From contig JAJFTE010000004.1 in NCBI GenBank assembly GCA_021373175.1, positions 19,588 through 43,587 on the forward strand: a stretch of DNA of 24,000 nt, given 5' to 3'. The stretch is from Actinomycetes bacterium (GTDB taxonomy: Bacteria; Actinomycetota; Coriobacteriia; Anaerosomatales; Anaerosomataceae). Each line of letters opens with the position of its first letter. The stretch's first letter is position 1. The notes beneath the pieces are model-generated. The model was not told where the DNA came from. It saw only the letters and a list, made by a program, of their open reading frames with translations, and ran no database searches. Shown here one piece after another: positions 1-7,209 of this stretch. The position numbers and the translations under genes are program-made.

Positions 1-1610
1 GGGAACTCAATGACTGGTGGTCCACCGGAAGGGGTCGCGACAACGGTCGGACAACGCAGCGTCCCGCTGTCCTGACGATCGGACCGGCAGGCGAGCGCAT
101 GACCCGGGTAGCGGCTCTCCTGCATGATGCCGGGAATGGCGCGGGTCAGGGCGGTTTTGGTGGAGTCTTCGGTTCGAAGAACCTCAAGGCGATAAGCGTC
201 ATCGGGACCGGTGGTGTGAAGGTGGCCGACCCCAGTGCCCTCATGGCTGCGCGCGAGTGGTCGAACAAGTACGCGATTGCCGGGAACTGGGACAACTACC
301 AGCCGGCTCCTTTTGGGATGGGTTTTCATTCCGCCCCCGGTTCCGCGGCAGCTGCGTACGCTCCGACGCCGCCCATCCCAATCGGCCCGATGGGCTGTAT
401 GGCGTGCCAGCATAATTGCCGAGTCCGCTTCGGAGGAGGTCAGACGAACGGGTCGAGCTGTCTGGACTTCCTCTTCTACATGTGGGACGCGAGGAAGCAT
501 GGTGGTAAGCCTACCCAGGTCTTGCAGGACGCCGTGGACCTCGTGCAACGTGCAGGGATCAACACCTTCGAGATGGAAGGCACCATCATCTGGCTAGCCA
601 ACCTCTATGGGATGGGCCTCATCGGCCGCGGCAAGAAGATCGAGAGCAGCCTTCCATTCGATCAGATCGGCGAGACGATCTTTGCCAAACAGCTCTTTGA
701 TGCGATCGTGGAGGGCAAGGATATCGGCAAGGACCTGGCACAGGGTTCCGCGCGTGCGGCCGAAGCATGGGGCCGCTACGACGAGGATACCGCGAGCGGC
801 GTCCTGCCGCTCCAGGCATGGGGATACCCACAGCATTACGACGCACGTACTGAGGTTGAATGGGGCTACGGCTCTCTGTTGGGCGAGCGGGACATCAACG
901 AGCATGATTTCAACATCTGGGTGTACTGGGTGCCCACCGTCGCCACTCTCTCCGGCGCGCAACCCCCGATGTCGGCCGAGGAGCTCTCAGAGCTCATGGC
1001 TAAGAAGCTTGTTCCGTACAGCGATCCCATGATGATGGACTACAGCGATGAGGGCATCTACTCTGAGTCGATGGCGAAGCTCGTTGCCTGGCACCGTCAC
1101 TACACACGCTTCTACAAGCAGTCGCTGGCTTACTGCGACTGGTCGTGGGCCGATTTCTACAATACCTATGGCCCCGACCATGTGGGTATGACCGGAGAAG
1201 GAGAGCAGAAGTTCTTCAATGCCGTGACCGGCAAGAACATCACCTTCGAGGAAGGGCTGGAGACGGGTCGGAAGATCTGGAACCTCGATCGAGCGATCTG
1301 GGTCCTTCAGGGGCGGCACAAGGACATGGAGTTTTTCACGGAGCAGAACTATCAGGTGGGCGCCGTGCCAGGGTTCACGACCTTCGAAGCTCCGTACGTA
1401 GTGCCGGTCCATGAGAACGGAACGTGGAGTTACAAGAACGTCGCCGGCCGCAAGCTCGACAAGGGCAAGGTCGAAGAGTGGAAGGTCAAGTACTACAAAC
1501 TCGAAGGCTGGGATCCTGAGAGCGGCTGTCCGACGCGGGAGACACTCGAGAAGCTGGGGCTTGCTAACGTGGCCGACGAGTTGGCGGCGGCCAAGAAGCT
1601 GCCGGCATGA
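1..1610 (+). CDS. Aldehyde:ferredoxin oxidoreductase (AOR) family tungsto/molybdopterin enzyme, 5'-truncated by the window edge
   Basis: The frame of ORF 99..1610 is open back to base 3. The upstream translation ..AVLTIGPAGERMTRVAALLHDAGNGAGQGGFGGVFGSKNLKAISV matches the AOR-family IGPAGE...GGxGxVxGSKNLKAI block. GCMACQHNC gives the C-x2-C-x3-C [4Fe-4S] ligands and LAYCDW a candidate fourth Cys. The C-terminal YYKLEGWDPESGCPTRETLEKLGL is typical of the AOR C-terminal domain. Confidence 0.85.
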   Translation, partial: ELNDWWSTGRGRDNGRTTQRPAVLTIGPAGERMTRVAALLHDAGNGAGQGGFGGVFGSKNLKAISVIGTGGVKVADPSALMAAREWSNKYAIAGNWDNYQPAPFGMGFHSAPGSAAAAYAPTPPIPIGPMGCMACQHNCRVRFGGGQTNGSSCLDFLFYMWDARKHGGKPTQVLQDAVDLVQRAGINTFEMEGTIIWLANLYGMGLIGRGKKIESSLPFDQIGETIFAKQLFDAIVEGKDIGKDLAQGSARAAEAWGRYDEDTASGVLPLQAWGYPQHYDARTEVEWGYGSLLGERDINEHDFNIWVYWVPTVATLSGAQPPMSAEELSELMAKKLVPYSDPMMMDYSDEGIYSESMAKLVAWHRHYTRFYKQSLAYCDWSWADFYNTYGPDHVGMTGEGEQKFFNAVTGKNITFEEGLETGRKIWNLDRAIWVLQGRHKDMEFFTEQNYQVGAVPGFTTFEAPYVVPVHENGTWSYKNVAGRKLDKGKVEEWKVKYYKLEGWDPESGCPTRETLEKLGLANVADELAAAKKLPA

Positions 1611-1624
1611 TGGGAGGTCTTGTA

Positions 1625-2071
1625 ATGGTGCACGATCTTCCTGCGCCTGAAGCGGAGCTCGCCGAACGGTTACTAGCGACCGTGCCCTTCGAGCAGCAGC
1701 TCATGGGGTCGCGGCTGAACCCGATGCGCGGCTCGGTGCGCGTCGACCTTCGGACGCTGAACGAGGCGGCGTCGTTCATGGAGACAGCTGCGTACGAGGA
1801 GATCATGGATCCCCGGGCGCAGGCGAACATCGGTTACGTCGATCCTCTGGGCCTCGCATTGTGGATTGAGACGGTCTTCGGTGACACGGGGCTCGCTGAC
1901 GCGGTGAGAGAGGTGGCCGCAGGCGCCGCTTCGTATGCGGCTGCCGTCGGTCCCGTGCGCGAACTCGTGCTGGGACGGCTCGAGCAGTGCGAGCAGGTGC
2001 TTGCCGCCGAAGGAGCGACGGACGAACGTGTGGCCTCTGACGCGCCACAGAGCGATGGAGAAGCAGGATAG
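1625..2071 (+). CDS. Hypothetical acidic Ala/Glu-rich cytoplasmic protein (148 aa); no family recognised
   Basis: ORF 1607..2071. The ATG at 1607 overlaps the AOR stop (ATGA). The in-frame ATG at 1625 is preceded by GGGAGG (1612-1617) at 7 nt spacing, so it is the preferred start. No TM segment, signal peptide or Cys motif. Same strand and tightly packed with its neighbours. Confidence 0.55.
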   Translation: MVHDLPAPEAELAERLLATVPFEQQLMGSRLNPMRGSVRVDLRTLNEAASFMETAAYEEIMDPRAQANIGYVDPLGLALWIETVFGDTGLADAVREVAAGAASYAAAVGPVRELVLGRLEQCEQVLAAEGATDERVASDAPQSDGEAG

Positions 2072-2104
2072 CGTGCGTTAGCCGGAGTTCGATCGTATAG
2101 CCGT

Positions 2105-2146
2105 GCCGGGCCATGAGACTGGCTGGTGGGACGCTCATGGCCCGGC
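2105..2146 (+). promoter_or_regulatory. Intercistronic stem-loop (13-bp perfect stem, 16-nt loop) between the unknown gene and the radical SAM gene
   Basis: gccgggccatgag (2105-2117) is the exact reverse complement of ctcatggcccggc (2134-2146). No U-tract follows. It lies in the 108-bp gap inside an otherwise overlapping operon. Confidence 0.5.
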
Positions 2147-2179
2147 CTCCGATAAAGTCCTCCCGAAAGGTGCAGTCTC

Positions 2180-3607
2180 TTGGACGTTGTGCTCTTCAAC
2201 GCACCGGTAACGAGCCGAAATCTGCACGCGCGGCTCTCACCTCCGTTGGGCCTGGCGTACATCGCGGGTGGTCTCGTTGAGGCTGGCTACCGGGTGAGCG
2301 CTTTGGACTTCAACGTGAGTGGCCTTGAGCTTCGCAGAGTCGATATGGTGATGGCGCACGATAAGCCAGCTGTCATCGGTATCTCGGCTATGACGGAGAC
2401 ATACGGCAACGCGTTGCGGATCGCGACACGAGCAAAAGAGCTGAACCCTGACACAGTGGTGGTACTGGGTGGCGCGCACCCAACGATCCTGCCCCGTGAG
2501 GTGATGGCGAGCGTGAACGTCGATTATGTCGTGGTGGGACCAGGTGAACGGTCCATGGTGGCACTCGTCAACGTGCTCCTGAGGTCGGAAGGCGACCTCG
2601 ACCAAGTGCCCGGGCTCGCTTATGCACGACGTGGTCAGGTGGTGATGAACCGTCCGGACGTGCTGCGTGCTCCGGAAGATATGCCCGAACCTCAGCGTGG
2701 CATCTTCCCAATCGAGTTGTACGAGGACAAATGGAACGTTCTGACGGCCACGGGGAGCTGCCCGTACCGATGCCCGTTCTGCTCCGCAGCGTCGCTGTGG
2801 CAAGGGCGGAGACGGATGCGCGATCCCGCGCATATCGTCGCTGAGATTCGTGATCTCACAGCCACCTATGGTGTGAGCGATGTGTTCTTCACCGATGACA
2901 TCTTCACGCTCAACCGTCGGTGGGTGCGTGAGTTGATGGACGAGCTTGGGACGCTGGAGCATCCGGTCCGGTGGGGCTGTGCGACGCGGGTGGACTCGGT
3001 GGACCGCGAACTGCTCACCTTGATGGCTGACAGCGGGTGTAGCGGTATCCAGTTCGGCGTGGAGTCAGGCTCCCAGGAGGTTCTCGACTCGGTGAAGGGT
3101 ATCGAGAAGGAACAGGTCATCGATGCGGTGACCATCAGTCTCGAACTGGGGATAGAACCGGTTTGCTCGTTCATCATGCCCTTCCCCGAAGACACCGAGC
3201 AGACGCTGCGCGAGACAAAGCTGTTCATCAAGGAGTTGCATTCGCTCGGATCAGGCATCTTCTTGTCCTACATGTGTCCGTTTCCCGGCACGCTGTACTA
3301 CGAACAGGCCGAGGAATTGGGCGTGCATATCTTGGGCCGAAGCTGGGATGAGTTCGATGCCAAGCACGTGGTCATGGAAACGAGGCATCTGGGCGCCAAA
3401 CGCATAACGGAGATCATGGAGGACATCGCGTCAGAGGTTGGAATGCGCCGGTCAGTACCGCTCCATCACGTTGCTGCCGAGGATGCCACAGACCGATCCC
3501 TGTGTGTGCGCACGATGGTGCGTCAAGACGCAGAAAGGGCTGAACTGGCGGCTGCGCCGATCGAGTTGATCTCTTCCAGCCGGGTTCGACAGGCACCAGA
3601 GCTATGA
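2180..3607 (+). CDS. Cobalamin (B12)-binding-domain radical SAM enzyme (class B type), substrate unknown
   Basis: The N-terminus MDVVLFNAP...PPLGLAYIAGGL...VVVLGGAHPT matches the B12-binding Rossmann-like domain layout. GSCPYRCPFCSA is the CX3CX2C radical SAM cluster motif, and GIQFGVESGS is a typical radical SAM core strand. TTG start at 2180 with AAGGTG 6 nt upstream. Confidence 0.85.
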   Translation: MDVVLFNAPVTSRNLHARLSPPLGLAYIAGGLVEAGYRVSALDFNVSGLELRRVDMVMAHDKPAVIGISAMTETYGNALRIATRAKELNPDTVVVLGGAHPTILPREVMASVNVDYVVVGPGERSMVALVNVLLRSEGDLDQVPGLAYARRGQVVMNRPDVLRAPEDMPEPQRGIFPIELYEDKWNVLTATGSCPYRCPFCSAASLWQGRRRMRDPAHIVAEIRDLTATYGVSDVFFTDDIFTLNRRWVRELMDELGTLEHPVRWGCATRVDSVDRELLTLMADSGCSGIQFGVESGSQEVLDSVKGIEKEQVIDAVTISLELGIEPVCSFIMPFPEDTEQTLRETKLFIKELHSLGSGIFLSYMCPFPGTLYYEQAEELGVHILGRSWDEFDAKHVVMETRHLGAKRITEIMEDIASEVGMRRSVPLHHVAAEDATDRSLCVRTMVRQDAERAELAAAPIELISSSRVRQAPEL

Positions 3608-4170
3608 AGAAGACAACGAGGGACTTTGAAGGGAGCGGAAGACCGATGAGAAGCCTGCTTCGTGCGCTGCTCGTTGCGTCGATTGCTGTGTTGATTCTCG
3701 GAGTGCTGTTGTTGGGCGCGGGATGTACCCCAAAGGAGGAACCCACGAGTACCCCGATCACGACGCCCCCCGCAACGGAATCCACGCAGACCGAGTCCGC
3801 CGAGCCAAGTACCCCTCCAGAGGTCGTCCTGGAGGGCGCTTGCACCCAATGTCATTCGACGACACAGATCTTCCTTCAGCCCACATACACGGACTGGAAG
3901 TCCGTCATCCTGAGGATGGAACAGGCGCACGGCGCGAAGCTGACTGACGCGCAGAAGACCGCTGTTGCCCAGTTCCTATCGACACGGCAAAGGCCGCTTG
4001 GCGAGCAGGTCATCGCAGGGAAGTGCACCGCGTGTCACACCTTGAGCCGCATCTATGCCAAGCCGAGCGGCACCGACTGGAAGCCGATAATCAAACGGAT
4101 GAAGGAGGCGCACGGTCTGGCGCTGACGCCACAAGAAGAAGCAGCGGTTCTCGATTACCTGGTCTGGTGA
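3604..4170 (+). CDS. Membrane-anchored (lipoprotein) dihaem c-type cytochrome with two tandem haem-binding modules
   Basis: Signal peptide MRSLLRALLVASIAVLILGVLLLGAG-C with a lipobox-like LGAGC. A Pro/Thr/Ser/Glu-rich linker follows. Two CxxCH motifs (CTQCH, CTACH) each sit in a repeated ~55-aa module: CxxCH..(8-10 aa)..TDWK..I(L/K)RM..AHG..LT....A..(F/Y)L. The start is either ATG 3604 (ATGA overlap with the radical SAM stop) or ATG 3646 (GAAGGGAG 10 nt upstream). Confidence 0.75.
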   Translation: MKKTTRDFEGSGRPMRSLLRALLVASIAVLILGVLLLGAGCTPKEEPTSTPITTPPATESTQTESAEPSTPPEVVLEGACTQCHSTTQIFLQPTYTDWKSVILRMEQAHGAKLTDAQKTAVAQFLSTRQRPLGEQVIAGKCTACHTLSRIYAKPSGTDWKPIIKRMKEAHGLALTPQEEAAVLDYLVW

Positions 4171-4208
4171 GCGACAGCCTTCGAGTCTTAGCCTCTAGCA
4201 GCGAGTTC

Positions 4209-4257
4209 CGAATACCGGCAGGCGTTCGACGATTTGTCGAACGCCTGCCGGTATTCG
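4209..4257 (+). terminator. Long perfect hairpin (22-bp stem, 5-nt loop) closing the AOR-rSAM-cytochrome operon
   Basis: cgaataccggcaggcgttcgac (4209-4230), loop gattt, gtcgaacgcctgccggtattcg (4236-4257); the arms are exact reverse complements. It begins 39 nt after the cytochrome stop. No U-tract. Confidence 0.6.
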
Positions 4258-4297
4258 CGTCGTGCGCCGGCGGCTCAAACTCACGCCACGAAGAGTC

Positions 4298-4341
4298 TTG
4301 ACAGAGCATCGTGGGTAATATGATACTGCTGCAATAGCAGT
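4298..4341 (+). promoter_or_regulatory. Candidate promoter plus palindromic operator upstream of the Rrf2-cydAB genes
   Basis: Consensus -35 TTGACA at 4298-4303. It is followed by the only AT-rich island nearby (gggtaatatgatact). -10 candidates are TATGAT at 4319-4324 and GATACT at 4322-4327, and the spacing is ambiguous. Inverted repeat actgct-gcaat-agcagt at 4325-4341, immediately before the RBS. Confidence 0.4.
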
Positions 4342-4361
4342 TAATGAGGAGAGCGGTCCCT

Positions 4362-4760
4362 GTGCAGATAACGCGACGTGCCGACTACGCTATCCGTCTC
4401 CTGCTTGAACTTGCCGGAACAACCGAGCGTCCCCTGTCGGTGCGCACCCTCTCGGAGCGCCAGGGTGTCCCGTATGCGTTCGCCCGCGCTGTGCAGCGCG
4501 ATCTGAGTGCCGCGAACCTCATCATGACCGTGCGCGGCGCGGCCGGTGGCGCGATTCTCGCCCGACCTCCGGAAGCGATCACCATGCTCGACGTCATCGA
4601 GGCGACGCAAGGCGCCCCCTCGATATCGGTATGTTCGCACGACCCCGATTGGTGCGCGCGGTCGGGTGAGTGCGCGGTCCATCGTGTCTGGTGCGGTGCC
4701 GATAGCATGCTCAGGGAGTACCTGGGCGGCAAGACCCTGGCGGGTCTCATACGAGGGTGA
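4362..4760 (+). CDS. Rrf2 family transcriptional regulator with a three-Cys putative Fe-S cluster site
   Basis: (V)QITRRADYAIRLLLELA...LSVRTLSERQGVPYAFARAVQRDLSAANLI..RGAAGGA is the Rrf2 winged-helix N-terminus. VCSHDPDWCARSGECAVHRVW gives C-x7-C-x5-C. ORF 4344..4760; the GTG at 4362 sits 8 nt after AGGAGAG, so it is the preferred start. Confidence 0.85.
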   Translation: MQITRRADYAIRLLLELAGTTERPLSVRTLSERQGVPYAFARAVQRDLSAANLIMTVRGAAGGAILARPPEAITMLDVIEATQGAPSISVCSHDPDWCARSGECAVHRVWCGADSMLREYLGGKTLAGLIRG

Positions 4761-4778
4761 GGAAAGCGAGGTGGGGGA

Positions 4779-6110
4779 ATGGACGTAGTCGTGCTCTCCA
4801 AACTGCAGTTCGCAGTGACGGTCGGCTACCATTTTCTGTTCGTGCCGCTGTCGATCGGGCTGGGGCTTGTGCTCGTGCTGGCCGAACGCCGGTTCTACAA
4901 GAGCGGGCTTGAGGAGGACCGCTCGGCTGCCGACTTCTGGGTGAAGCTCTTCACGGCGACGTTCGCGGTAGGCGTTGCGACCGGTATCACTATGGAGTTC
5001 GCGTTCGGCACGAACTGGGCGACGTACTCGCGCTTTGTTGGCGATATCTTCGGTGCGCCGCTTGCTGCCGAGGGACTCTTCGCGTTCTTCCTGGAGTCGA
5101 CGTTCCTGGCGGTGCTGATCTTCGGACGCCGCCGAGTCTCGAAGAGGTTCTTCTACACGAGCGCTTGGCTTGTGTGGGCGGGATCGCTTCTCTCGGCGCT
5201 GTGGATCATCATCGCCAACTCCTGGATGCAGACTCCCGCAGGCTACAAGATCGTCGGCGAGGGCGCCACGCGCAAGGCGCAACTCGTTGACTTCTTCGCC
5301 GCGGCGTTCAACCCCTCAACGCTTCCCCGGTACTTTCATACCGTCGATTCCACGCTCATCGTGGGCGGCTTTCTGGCGATGGCGATCGCGGCGTACTATC
5401 TGCGCCGTGGCACGCACGTGCGCTTCGCCCGCGCCACGATGAAGACGGGGATAGCGATTGCCGCGATCACCACGGTGCTGATCCTTCCCATCGGGCACTG
5501 GCAGGCACTTAACGTGCTTGCGCATCAGCCGAGCAAGATCGCCGCGTTCGAAGGCCACTGGGACAACGGCCCGATGTCCCTCGGGCTCATCGGTTATGTC
5601 GACCAGGCCAATGGCAAGACGGTCTCCCTGGCGATCCCCCGGGGCGTGAACATGCTCGCCGGTGACTTCGCCGGAAAGCGGTCGTTTACCGGGCTGAACA
5701 GCTTCGCGCCTGCGGACCGGCCGCCGCTGCAGCTCACCTATCAGACCTACCATCTGATGATCGCGCTGTGGGGGGTGATGCTCGTTCTCGCCGGGGTCTC
5801 GTGGTACCTGAACCGCTCGGGAAAGCTGGAGCACAACAGGCGGCTTCTCGGTCTGCTGATGTGGGCGCCACTCGTTCCGATGCTTTCGATTCAACTGGGA
5901 TGGGCGGCCGCCGAGGTCGGTCGTCAGCCGTGGATCGTCTGGAACGAGCTGAGGACCGTCGATGCTGTCTCGAAAGCGGTGCCCGCAGGCGAGGTCCTGA
6001 CGACGCTCGTTTTGTTCGTCTTGTTCTACACCATCATGTATGTCGCGTGGGGCCGGGTCGTTACCAAGATGATCAAGAACGGTCCCGCTCTTCCCGAGGA
6101 GGTGAGGTAG
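4779..6110 (+). CDS. cydA: Cytochrome bd-type quinol oxidase subunit I (short Q-loop form, 443 aa)
   Basis: LSKLQFAVTVGYHFLFVPLSIGLG (haem-ligand His region), ...GWAAAEVGRQPWIV signature, multiple TM helices. RBS GAGGTGGGGG lies just upstream. Confidence 0.95.
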   Translation: MDVVVLSKLQFAVTVGYHFLFVPLSIGLGLVLVLAERRFYKSGLEEDRSAADFWVKLFTATFAVGVATGITMEFAFGTNWATYSRFVGDIFGAPLAAEGLFAFFLESTFLAVLIFGRRRVSKRFFYTSAWLVWAGSLLSALWIIIANSWMQTPAGYKIVGEGATRKAQLVDFFAAAFNPSTLPRYFHTVDSTLIVGGFLAMAIAAYYLRRGTHVRFARATMKTGIAIAAITTVLILPIGHWQALNVLAHQPSKIAAFEGHWDNGPMSLGLIGYVDQANGKTVSLAIPRGVNMLAGDFAGKRSFTGLNSFAPADRPPLQLTYQTYHLMIALWGVMLVLAGVSWYLNRSGKLEHNRRLLGLLMWAPLVPMLSIQLGWAAAEVGRQPWIVWNELRTVDAVSKAVPAGEVLTTLVLFVLFYTIMYVAWGRVVTKMIKNGPALPEEVR

Positions 6111-7151
6111 ATGGGACTCGGTGAGATCTGGTTCGTGCTCCTGGGCGTGCTGTTCGCCGGATACGCCATTTTCGACGGCTTCGACCTGGGCGTCGGCATC
6201 CTCTACCCGTTCCTGGGCAAATCCGAGGGCGATAAGGCGACGATGCGGTTTTCGGTCGGCCCCATCTGGGATGGCAATGAGGTGTGGCTTCTAACTGCGG
6301 GCGGAGCGCTCTTCGCGGCGTTCCCAGCGGTATACGCTACCGTCTTCAGCGGCATGTACATCGCGCTTATGCTCCTGCTCTTCGCGCTGTTGTTCCGCGC
6401 GGGCGCGCTCGAATTCCGTAACCGTGATCCACAGTGGGCCGGGTTCTGGGACTGGGCGTTCTTCCTGGGGAGCGCCATTCCGGCGCTGTTGTTCGGCGTT
6501 GCCGTGGGCAACATCATCCGCGGCCTTCCCCTTACCGACGCGGGTGAGTTCATCGCCGGCGGCGGCCAGCCGGTCTTCCTCGGCAATCTGCTTGCCGCGC
6601 TCAACCCGTATGCGATCGTCATCGGAGTCTTGAGCGTGGCGTGGATCATGGTTCACGGCTCGGCCTGGCTTGCGCTGAAGACAACCGGCGAAGTGCACGA
6701 GCGCGCCGCAAAGGCGCGCGGCGCGCTGCTCGTCGTGTTTGTGGCGGTGCTTGTGGCGGCCACCGTGGCTACGATATTCCTTGCACCAGACGCATGGGCT
6801 CGGGCAACGGACAGTCCGCTGGGATGGTTGTTCGGCGTGCTCATCTTCGTTGGCGCGGGGCTGGTCCTGCTCGGGACGCGCAAGGGCGATGTGATGAGCT
6901 TTCTCGGCTCGACGCTTGCTGGCGCATCGATGGTGGCTACGTGGGCCGCGGCGATCTTCCCGGCGCTCGTGCCATCCATTGGGCCGGGCCAGGCGCTCAC
7001 GATCGCCAACGCCGCGGCATCGCCGGTCGCCCTTACGGCCATGCTGGTGATCGCGTGCATCGGTGTGCCGCTCGTGGTCTTCTACTTCTTCTTGATCTAC
7101 CGAACCTACGCCGGCCGCATCAGCGCAACGGATCTAGGGGAGCACTACTAG
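6111..7151 (+). CDS. cydB: Cytochrome bd-type quinol oxidase subunit II
   Basis: IWFVLLGVLFAGYAIFDGFDLGVGIL..GPIWDGNEVWLLTAGGALFAAFP are typical CydB N-terminal motifs. The ATG directly abuts the cydA stop (TAG ATG), with GAGGAGGTGAGG upstream. Confidence 0.93.
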   Translation: MGLGEIWFVLLGVLFAGYAIFDGFDLGVGILYPFLGKSEGDKATMRFSVGPIWDGNEVWLLTAGGALFAAFPAVYATVFSGMYIALMLLLFALLFRAGALEFRNRDPQWAGFWDWAFFLGSAIPALLFGVAVGNIIRGLPLTDAGEFIAGGGQPVFLGNLLAALNPYAIVIGVLSVAWIMVHGSAWLALKTTGEVHERAAKARGALLVVFVAVLVAATVATIFLAPDAWARATDSPLGWLFGVLIFVGAGLVLLGTRKGDVMSFLGSTLAGASMVATWAAAIFPALVPSIGPGQALTIANAAASPVALTAMLVIACIGVPLVVFYFFLIYRTYAGRISATDLGEHY

Positions 7152-7176
7152 CGGATTCGGAGTCCGAGGGAACGAT

Positions 7177-7209
7177 GAGGGGTCGCCTGCGGGCGGCCCC
7201 TCCTTTTTC
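7177..7209 (+). terminator. Intrinsic terminator after cydB; it may also serve convergent rpiA
   Basis: 11-bp stem gaggggtcgcc (7177-7187) / ggcggcccctc (7192-7202) with one G-U wobble, loop tgcg. It is followed by cTTTTTc (7203-7209). Confidence 0.75.

Follow-up and report, generated by a model that had tools for sequence, protein, structure and literature searches.

The first 4257 nt of a 24,000-nt stretch of DNA from an Actinomycetes bacterium of the order Anaerosomatales (contig JAJFTE010000004.1, positions 19,588 to 43,587), the whole of which is called the window below, hold four consecutive genes on the + strand. They code for a fragment of a large pterin subunit of the aldehyde:ferredoxin oxidoreductase (AOR)/tungsten-containing oxidoreductase (WOR) family, a small protein, a radical S-adenosylmethionine (SAM) enzyme with a B12-binding domain, and a dihaem cytochrome c. 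The AOR gene and the class-B radical SAM gene make up a real conserved pair, with an order that recurs in dozens of unrelated contigs, and sequence comparison suggests that the four genes form the 3′ two-thirds of a cassette of six genes, which is conserved in bacteria and archaea alike. We give roughly even chances to the proposal that this cassette encodes a W/Mo-bis-pyranopterin oxidoreductase of the AOR/WOR family, exported by the twin-arginine translocation (Tat) pathway and anchored to the membrane, together with a dedicated class-B radical SAM maturase.

In the related loci, designated here by L numbers, the cassette consists of genes coding for a cytochrome b, a Tat-signal subunit with four [4Fe-4S] clusters, an AOR of about 695 aa, the small protein, the B12-radical SAM enzyme and, in some cases, the cytochrome c. 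The four genes had been taken for a unit in an earlier note made on this DNA from the sequence alone; their adjacency is real, and the relatives add to it the genes for a dihaem cytochrome b and the Tat-signal Fe-S subunit upstream of the AOR gene, both of which the window organism presumably has as well.

A scan anchored on the radical SAM gene, with one genome per species, placed the AOR gene directly upstream of it in about 27 of the 33 informative orthologous loci, in the order (cytochrome b)-Fe-S subunit-AOR-(small protein)-radical SAM. The orthologues are carried by Coriobacteriia, Actinomycetes, Bacilli, including the cultured Neobacillus niacini (JJ211) and Bacillus sp. FJAT-29814, other Bacillota, Chloroflexota and a few metagenome-assembled genomes (MAGs) labelled as Betaproteobacteria or Bacteroidota, a Betaproteobacteria MAG being among the loci with this gene order. 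The archaeal carriers are Halodesulfurarchaeum formicicum, Ca. Methanohalarchaeum and SCG-AAA382B04. The earlier note had allowed that the adjacency might turn out to be fortuitous if relatives did not share it; the gene order recurs, and adjacency by chance is ruled out in the case of the radical SAM gene.

The two genes also diverge together. Their subfamilies match in rough neighbour-joining trees, also within the genomes with two cassettes, and the pairwise distances of the AOR and radical SAM proteins are correlated (Mantel r = 0.57, a value reached in 0 of 2000 permutations), part of this correlation reflecting organismal relatedness. Within the paired subclade of the AOR tree, every member with enough flanking sequence has the radical SAM gene, which is moreover duplicated along with the cassette in L013, where each copy has its own radical SAM and cytochrome c genes, and in L088. 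The former locus (L013:252-12799) is a contig from an uncultured member of Coriobacteriia with two complete tandem six-gene cassettes, the copies being about 50% identical and the cytochrome c of the first copy being short, with a single CxxCH motif. The latter (L088:1569-12697, Anaerosomatales) has two tandem sets of cytochrome b, Fe-S subunit, AOR and small protein genes followed by two radical SAM genes, which belong to the subfamilies matching its two AORs.

Only the Fe-S subunit and AOR genes accompany the radical SAM gene constantly, the cytochrome b and the small protein being variable and the cytochrome c rare. Thus, loci L025 and L040 have the Fe-S subunit, AOR and radical SAM genes without cytochrome b, and the small protein is absent in L021, L027 and the cultured Bacilli. 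No transporter gene and no further catabolic or pathway gene was found to be conserved in the cassette or its flanks in the related loci. Other arrangements were observed as well. The archaeon SCG-AAA382B04 (L036:4554-11284) possesses a single module of Fe-S subunit, AOR, small protein and cytochrome b genes followed by two different tandem radical SAM paralogues. In Chloroflexota, one locus (L037:593-9424) has the radical SAM gene between two Fe-S subunit-AOR pairs and no cytochrome b gene, and in another (L040:6909-14857) the Fe-S subunit, AOR and radical SAM genes are followed by the genes for a second Tat-signal Fe-S protein and the large subunit of a NiFe hydrogenase. In L015:7691-9793 a strongly divergent AOR, which has 42% identity and a basal position in the tree, is combined with a cytochrome b, Fe-S subunit and radical SAM enzyme typical of the main group, and a small-protein gene was not detected. 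A Robertmurraya MAG (L038:853-2488) has a degraded copy with a truncated cytochrome b and an N-terminally truncated radical SAM enzyme with the motif CPFKCPFY, in which the third cysteine is lost; a pseudogene and an assembly error are both possible.

Proteins encoded by the cassette

The AOR fragment from the window contains the Pfam domains AFOR_N (E-value 3e-12, 47 bits) and AFOR_C (4e-32, 112 bits), both above the Pfam cut-off and both also detected in the full-length relatives. The latter are 685-702 aa long and up to 70% identical to the fragment, and they form a divergent clade of long AORs, as the earlier note had hinted. Its estimate of the length was roughly right in that the relatives have about 695 aa compared to about 605 aa in the Pyrococcus AOR, with the correction that 535 aa is the length of the whole fragment and the part from the IGPAGE block to the C-terminus has 510 aa. 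The [4Fe-4S] motif CMACQHNC (CxxCxxxC) is located at 396-419 and the fourth cluster cysteine at 1134-1136. These residues align with C288, C291 and C295 of the Pyrococcus furiosus AOR (PfAOR) and with C307, C310, C314 and C558 of E. coli YdhV, and do not vary among the 20 clade members compared. The cysteine encoded at 459-461, also invariant in the clade, aligns with Cys336 of YdhV, the proposed metal ligand. The clade profile aligns with the Pyrococcus AOR (1aor) via the N-terminal domain and the cluster motif and then diverges, the position of PfAOR Glu313 being hydrophobic in the clade according to the profile alignment and the region of His448 having no reliable alignment. Judging from the cysteine aligned with Cys336, the protein is of the YdhV/BamB type with a putative cysteine ligand to the metal. 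YdhV is the nearest named family, the identity over the full length being 26%; against its NCBIfam model NF007354 a full-length relative scores 230 bits and the window fragment 108 bits, values under the cut-off of 868 bits.

A Tat signal had been looked for on the AOR itself. It is not expected there, as the N-termini of the full-length relatives read MxGGYxGKILR with no signal peptide, and it is the Fe-S partner that carries one. A second scan, anchored on the AOR and performed in metagenomes, showed the gene for this subunit of 230-260 aa with four clusters to adjoin the AOR gene in 51 of 53 loci, and a twin-arginine motif, e.g. SRREFL or SRRNFL, is present in 70 of the 77 complete N-termini. 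Since the AOR is free of a signal and the Fe-S subunit has the Tat motif, the AOR is expected to be exported by hitch-hiking on the Fe-S subunit, a route by which NiFe hydrogenases are exported as well. The cytochrome b, found in the closest relatives, belongs to the Ni_hydr_CYTB family, its best model matches being gamma subunits of formate dehydrogenases; four haem-ligand histidines are invariant in 26 of 26 sequences and there is no conserved cysteine.

The radical SAM enzyme possesses the Pfam domains B12-binding (4e-24, 85 bits) and Radical_SAM (5e-24, 86 bits), both above the cut-off, and the motif CPYRCPFC (CxxxCxxC) at 2759-2782 with invariant C194, C198 and C201. By its domain content it may be assigned to the class-B (cobalamin-domain) enzymes, the use of cobalamin being a prediction. 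All of its 25 NCBIfam matches are under the equivalog cut-offs, the top scores being those of BchE (166 of 481 bits, 1.4e-48) and ApyD (163 of 750); TIGR04014 gives 100 of 360. In the AlphaFold2 (AF2) model (mean predicted local distance difference test score, pLDDT, 82) the nearest solved folds are AprD4, TsrM and MgmA, AprD4 being the best match among solved structures by both sequence and fold. Like AprD4 and MgmA, the protein is compact and has no large C-terminal domain; it opens directly at the first strand of the Rossmann-like domain without a signal peptide, and is likely to be cytoplasmic. Orthologues have 36-63% identity, after which there is a sharp drop to paralogues of 26-31% with no AOR nearby. 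Such distinct B12-radical SAM paralogues were observed in Nitrospirota, Leptospirillum and Methylomirabilota/Rokubacteria (L047-L086).

The small protein has no Pfam, NCBIfam or PDB sequence match even when a profile of 51 sequences is used, and no similarity to YdhW or YdhT was detected with hhalign. A word-indexed search for homologues gave a single match, and an exhaustive search with a hidden Markov model gave 173 cluster representatives of about 110-150 aa, all of them stand-alone with no informative fusion. The AF2 model, obtained from a 2-sequence alignment, is helical and of low confidence (pLDDT 61). The gene is situated directly after the AOR gene in relatives, whether or not these have the radical SAM gene, and since it also occurs in those lacking the latter, the protein is an independent accessory, putatively a private assembly factor or chaperone of the AOR. 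Locus L003 has an ORF (open reading frame) of 82 aa after the cytochrome c gene (L003:5652-5900), with the motifs P-x-SELA-x-R and GD-x-DLA resembling those of the small protein; it may be a remnant paralogue.

The cytochrome c has two CxxCH motifs, CTQCH and CTACH, at 3841-3855 and 4024-4038, and a signal peptide ending in LLGAGC (3709-3726) followed by a tether rich in Thr, Pro and Glu, so that, as read from the sequence, it is probably an exported lipoprotein. The Dehyd-heme_bind domain passes its cut-off (5e-14, 52.7 vs 25.2 bits), and the two haem domains are SorB-like, with the whole-protein scores staying under the cut-offs for both SorB (NF052246, 61 of 93 bits, 7e-17) and the alpha subunit of quinohaemoprotein amine dehydrogenase (QHNDH; TIGR03908, 48 of 274 bits). 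The earlier note counted the protein among those co-encoded with the AOR; it is not a conserved partner, as its gene was found only in the window, L003/L004, L012 and L013, the position being shared in L003/L004 and L013 and upstream in L012. As it is present in few loci, its role as a core subunit was rejected, and it is most likely an extra electron partner on the outer face, specific to this lineage.

Proposed role of the radical SAM enzyme

In the proposed scheme, the large subunit would gain its pterin cofactor and [4Fe-4S] cluster in the cytoplasm and pair there with the four-cluster Fe-S subunit, the twin-arginine signal of which would take both proteins across the membrane. Outside, the pair would dock on the FdnI-like dihaem cytochrome b and so be connected to the quinone pool, and in this lineage the lipoprotein dihaem cytochrome c might provide a second electron route on the outer face. 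The radical SAM maturase would modify the large subunit/Fe-S subunit pair or the pyranopterin before export, most likely by C-methylation, which is the commonest chemistry of class-B radical SAM enzymes. We infer the direction of electron flow, as well as the role and chemistry of the maturase.

A private maturase acting before export is suggested by the combination of an exported AOR, a cytoplasmic radical SAM enzyme and the lack of a conserved transporter or pathway gene. The presence of an own radical SAM paralogue in each duplicated cassette points the same way, as do neighbouring fdhD genes, which are maturation genes of the Moco sulfurase type: a gene for an FdhD/NarQ-type sulfurtransferase adjoins the radical SAM gene in two contigs of Bacillaceae MAGs (L018:9203-12393 and L038:2-2488), and an fdhD gene is located upstream of the cassette in a Coriobacteriia MAG (L031:3983-4681). 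An fdhD-type gene has been reported close to a Class V WOR in Cetobacterium somerae too (PMC13328260). The compact MgmA-like fold was also counted in favour of a maturase, as MgmA methylates a residue of methyl-coenzyme M reductase. It was suggested in the earlier note that the enzyme may act on the substrate, the cofactor or the AOR protein; the last two are favoured here and the first is ranked lower. The more specific claim, namely that the radical SAM enzyme installs a new modification on an exported respiratory AOR, either on the W/Mo pyranopterin (giving a C-methylated pterin) or on an active-site residue, is put forward tentatively, with chances somewhat short of even.

Several observations weigh against this proposal. 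Of the 41 metagenome AOR loci with enough downstream sequence, only 6 include the radical SAM gene, so the pairing marks a subclade of the AOR family, and as most AOR relatives lack the gene, the proposed modification is not required family-wide. Orphan orthologues of the radical SAM enzyme with no nearby AOR were found in L016/L169, L023 and L042/L087. No residue or indel of the AOR or the Fe-S subunit cleanly separates the relatives that have the radical SAM gene from those that lack it, the sole exception being the position next to the ligand cysteine, where the window protein itself departs from the pattern. The presence of the radical SAM gene tracks that of the cytochrome b gene (both in 23 loci, cytochrome b only in 2, radical SAM only in 3 and neither in 16), which could point to another target. 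The nearest solved fold, AprD4, is that of a small-molecule dehydratase not using cobalamin. Finally, the upstream Fe-S subunit and cytochrome b genes would lie outside the window and are known from relatives, and the enzyme is tied to its presumed target by genomic context. A comparison of the AOR and Fe-S subunit sequences of relatives that have or lack the radical SAM gene, made to reveal a marker residue that might be modified, gave nothing convincing.

Of the other explanations, the one that survives best, although we consider it unlikely, makes the radical SAM enzyme a metabolic partner which converts a cytoplasmic small molecule serving as the substrate or arising as the product of the AOR, the cassette being a short catabolic or respiratory pathway. 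It is in line with the best solved match being a small-molecule diol dehydratase (AprD4), with the many class-B enzymes, such as TokK, CysS, OxsB and BchE, that act on small molecules, and with the existence of orphan radical SAM copies. The two enzymes would, however, work on opposite sides of the membrane with no conserved transporter or pathway gene in the cassette or its flanks, and this explanation is at odds with the retention of a separate radical SAM paralogue by each duplicated cassette and with the consistent pairing of the AOR and radical SAM subfamilies.

It is less probable still that the target is a quinone or the cytochrome b haem, modified in the manner of the tetrapyrrole-acting BchE, BchQ and BchR. 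BchE is the top NCBIfam match, but its score is far under the cut-off. Likewise, the correlation of the radical SAM gene with the cytochrome b gene, the two being adjacent in archaea, is confounded by phylogeny, and the cytochrome b-free loci L025 and L040 retain the radical SAM enzyme together with the Fe-S subunit and the AOR, which also weakens the cytochrome b as an obligatory partner. In addition, the cytochrome b appears to be of the ordinary FdnI type, with its four invariant histidines and no conserved cysteine, and to our knowledge neither YdhU nor FdnI of E. coli needs such a radical SAM enzyme.

The weakest explanation, a fortuitous adjacency or shared regulation only, with the radical SAM enzyme and the cytochrome c unrelated to the AOR, agrees with the cytochrome c being confined to a handful of loci and with some radical SAM orthologues being orphan, but is highly improbable in view of a gene order shared by several bacterial phyla and three lineages of archaea, the tandem duplication of the whole cassette including the radical SAM and cytochrome c genes, and the correlation between AOR and radical SAM divergence.

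Gene boundaries, hairpins and the downstream unit

The coordinates of the features are given in Table 1. That there are four same-strand genes is confirmed. The unit is cut by the window edge, so its upstream genes are deduced from relatives and are not visible in the window; extension to the left, as proposed in the earlier note, was possible only with the near-identical 4.7-kb contig L001, found through the exact radical SAM protein, which adds 77 aa to the AOR.

Table 1 Features of the AOR-radical SAM unit in the window.
Feature	Coordinates	Strand	Remarks
AOR/WOR-family large pterin subunit, C-terminal 535 aa	3..1610	+	Pfam AFOR_N, AFOR_C; 5′ end cut by window edge
Small cytoplasmic protein, 148 aa (154 aa from ATG 1607)	1625..2071	+	Unannotated stand-alone family
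Perfect 13-bp GC-rich hairpin, 16-nt loop	2105..2146	+	In the 108 nt separating the small gene from the radical SAM gene
Class-B radical SAM enzyme, B12-binding and Radical_SAM	2180..3607	+	Alternative start GTG 2189
Exported dihaem cytochrome c, probably a lipoprotein	3646..4170	+	Alternative start ATG 3604; Dehyd-heme_bind
Perfect 22-bp stem, 5-nt loop, no T-run	4209..4257	+	Probable end of the transcription unit

The ATGA overlaps at 1607-1610 and 3604-3607, described before as stop/start overlaps, are present and in the correct frames. As true starts they are doubtful, and the downstream ATGs at 1625 and 3646 are probably to be preferred, the tight packing of the genes holding with either set of start codons. 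The small protein most likely starts at ATG 1625, which has the Shine-Dalgarno sequence GGGAGG 7 nt upstream: all homologues begin at the equivalent residue, and a length of 148 aa is also found for an independent database entry, P0241, and for the gene as called in L001. The cytochrome c, in turn, most likely starts at ATG 3646, which is preceded by the Shine-Dalgarno sequence GAAGGGAG and leads straight into the signal peptide MRSLLRALL; the gene call in L001 has 174 aa, and no database record was found for the 188-aa form.

The hairpin at 4209-4257 (-48.7 kcal/mol, z = -9.6 vs shuffles) is the strongest inverted repeat in 1-4400 and, having no T-run, is not listed by a scan for consensus terminators. 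It was previously described as the only strong terminator-like hairpin, which is correct as to its strength and overlooks the second perfect hairpin at 2105-2146. Stems of 8-14 bp recur in the equivalent gap of 60-110 nt in about two thirds of the related loci, from several phyla, the same gap being only 20-40 nt long and free of a hairpin in the remaining loci. The hairpin at 2105-2146 is a possible intra-operon attenuator or mRNA-stabilising element, and its recurrence fits a lower expression of the accessory radical SAM gene, which is only suggestive.

Downstream of the cassette there is a promoter-like site at 4298-4327 (TTGACA, 18 nt, GATACT), followed by the gene for an Rrf2 regulator (4344-4760), cydA and cydB (4779-7151) and a canonical terminator (7177-7202). 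This Rrf2-cydAB region (4298-7202) is a separate transcription unit. Neither cydA nor Rrf2 was found in any of about 160 related loci, L001 holding only the start of the Rrf2 gene as it represents the same region. The suggestion that the cytochrome c may be linked to the neighbouring quinol oxidase therefore fails, and a connection between cydAB and the cassette was rejected, as these genes are absent from the related loci, are separated from the cassette by the hairpin and are preceded by a promoter-like site of their own.

Comparison with known systems

Class V WORs were defined in a 2026 classification by Putumbaka et al. by a small subunit with a Tat signal or a transmembrane segment and are membrane-associated (PMC13328260). 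These YdhV-like proteins account for more than a tenth of the AOR/WOR family and are carried by E. coli and gut Coriobacteriia, and none of them has a known activity, one recombinant large subunit having oxidised 0 of 46 aldehydes (PMC13328260). In the ydhYVWXUT operon of E. coli the AOR-family protein is encoded together with a Tat-signal ferredoxin-like protein and a PhsC-like cytochrome b (PMC13328260). In the relatives of the window, a Tat-signal Fe-S gene adjoins the AOR gene and a membrane cytochrome b is a further subunit, so the cassette appears to fit Class V by its subunits, with no membership in clade 41 being implied. As Class V WORs and ydhYVWXUT are on record (PMC13328260), a membrane-wired AOR is not new, and this case is missing from the survey of AOR partners in the earlier note. 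Its statement that there is no described AOR wired to a class-B radical SAM enzyme and a c-type cytochrome stands within the literature searched. No paper on a cobalamin radical SAM enzyme with an AOR/WOR was found in that literature, which takes in the main text of PMC13328260; its supplementary table could include such a neighbourhood. What appears to be undescribed is the subclade of Class V-type WORs with a dedicated class-B radical SAM partner.

If the proposed role is true, maturation by a radical SAM enzyme would be seen for the first time in the AOR/WOR family, and the subclade would be a group of Class V WORs set apart by an altered chemistry; the case is of interest to researchers of molybdenum/tungsten enzymes and radical SAM enzymes alike. 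A dedicated radical SAM enzyme suggests a hidden modification of the cofactor or the protein, which could explain why recombinant large subunits have been inactive. For radical SAM enzymology, the enzyme represents a compact class-B family of several hundred members with a well-defined genomic partner. The question is testable, as the cassette is present in the cultured Halodesulfurarchaeum formicicum, Neobacillus niacini JJ211 and Bacillus sp. FJAT-29814.

The cassette shares with YdhYVWXUT, a Class V (clade 41) system (YdhV, Reschke et al. 2019), an AOR of about 700 aa with the cysteine aligned to YdhV Cys336 and the four cluster cysteines, the Tat-signal Fe-S subunit and the Ni_hydr_CYTB cytochrome b. 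It differs in that its AOR is only 26% identical to YdhV and homologues of YdhW and YdhT are absent, and it adds the small protein, the class-B radical SAM enzyme and sometimes the cytochrome c, none of which is in the main text of PMC13328260. A 2025 review noted that YdhV (Cys336) and BamB (Cys322) share the cysteine ligand to the metal and are without the second-shell residues of aldehyde-oxidising AORs (PMC12096430). In its putative cysteine ligand the cassette AOR resembles BamB, likewise an AOR-family protein, whereas BamB is cytoplasmic and forms an electron-bifurcating complex with BamC-I, with no Tat partner, cytochrome b or radical SAM enzyme.

The layout of the cassette is similar to that of formate dehydrogenase-N (FdnGHI), in which the pterin subunit faces outward and is combined with a four-cluster Fe-S protein and a cytochrome b having two haems and four histidine ligands, and by analogy suggests a redox loop to menaquinone. 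Unlike in FdnGHI, the catalytic subunit belongs to the AOR family (bis-pyranopterin without nucleotide) and not to the DMSO (dimethyl sulfoxide) reductase family, the scores staying under the family cut-offs, and the Tat signal is on the Fe-S subunit instead of the catalytic one.

As for the radical SAM enzyme, a MoaA-like radical SAM gene, cmo, is known beside the Pyrococcus aor and has long been presumed to act on the pterin cofactor. Cmo, unlike the cassette enzyme, has no cobalamin domain and is found beside a cytoplasmic, ferredoxin-linked AOR. The QhpA/QhpD operon of quinohaemoprotein amine dehydrogenase also encodes a periplasmic redox enzyme along with a cytoplasmic radical SAM maturase, and both this operon and the sulfite dehydrogenase SorAB include a cytochrome c, with two haems or one, that shares its domain type with the cassette cytochrome. 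QhpD, however, is of the SPASM type and not of the B12 type, and the cytochromes match in the haem domains only, the whole-protein scores being under the cut-offs. The enzyme AprD4 carries a B12 domain and yet does not use B12. MgmA (9ccb; TIGR04014), which is among the top fold matches, has the same compact design, a B12 domain joined to a radical SAM core in about 430-450 aa, the cassette enzyme being only about 23% identical to it and scoring 100 vs 360 bits; MgmA provides a precedent for a cobalamin radical SAM enzyme which C-methylates a residue of a large metalloenzyme.

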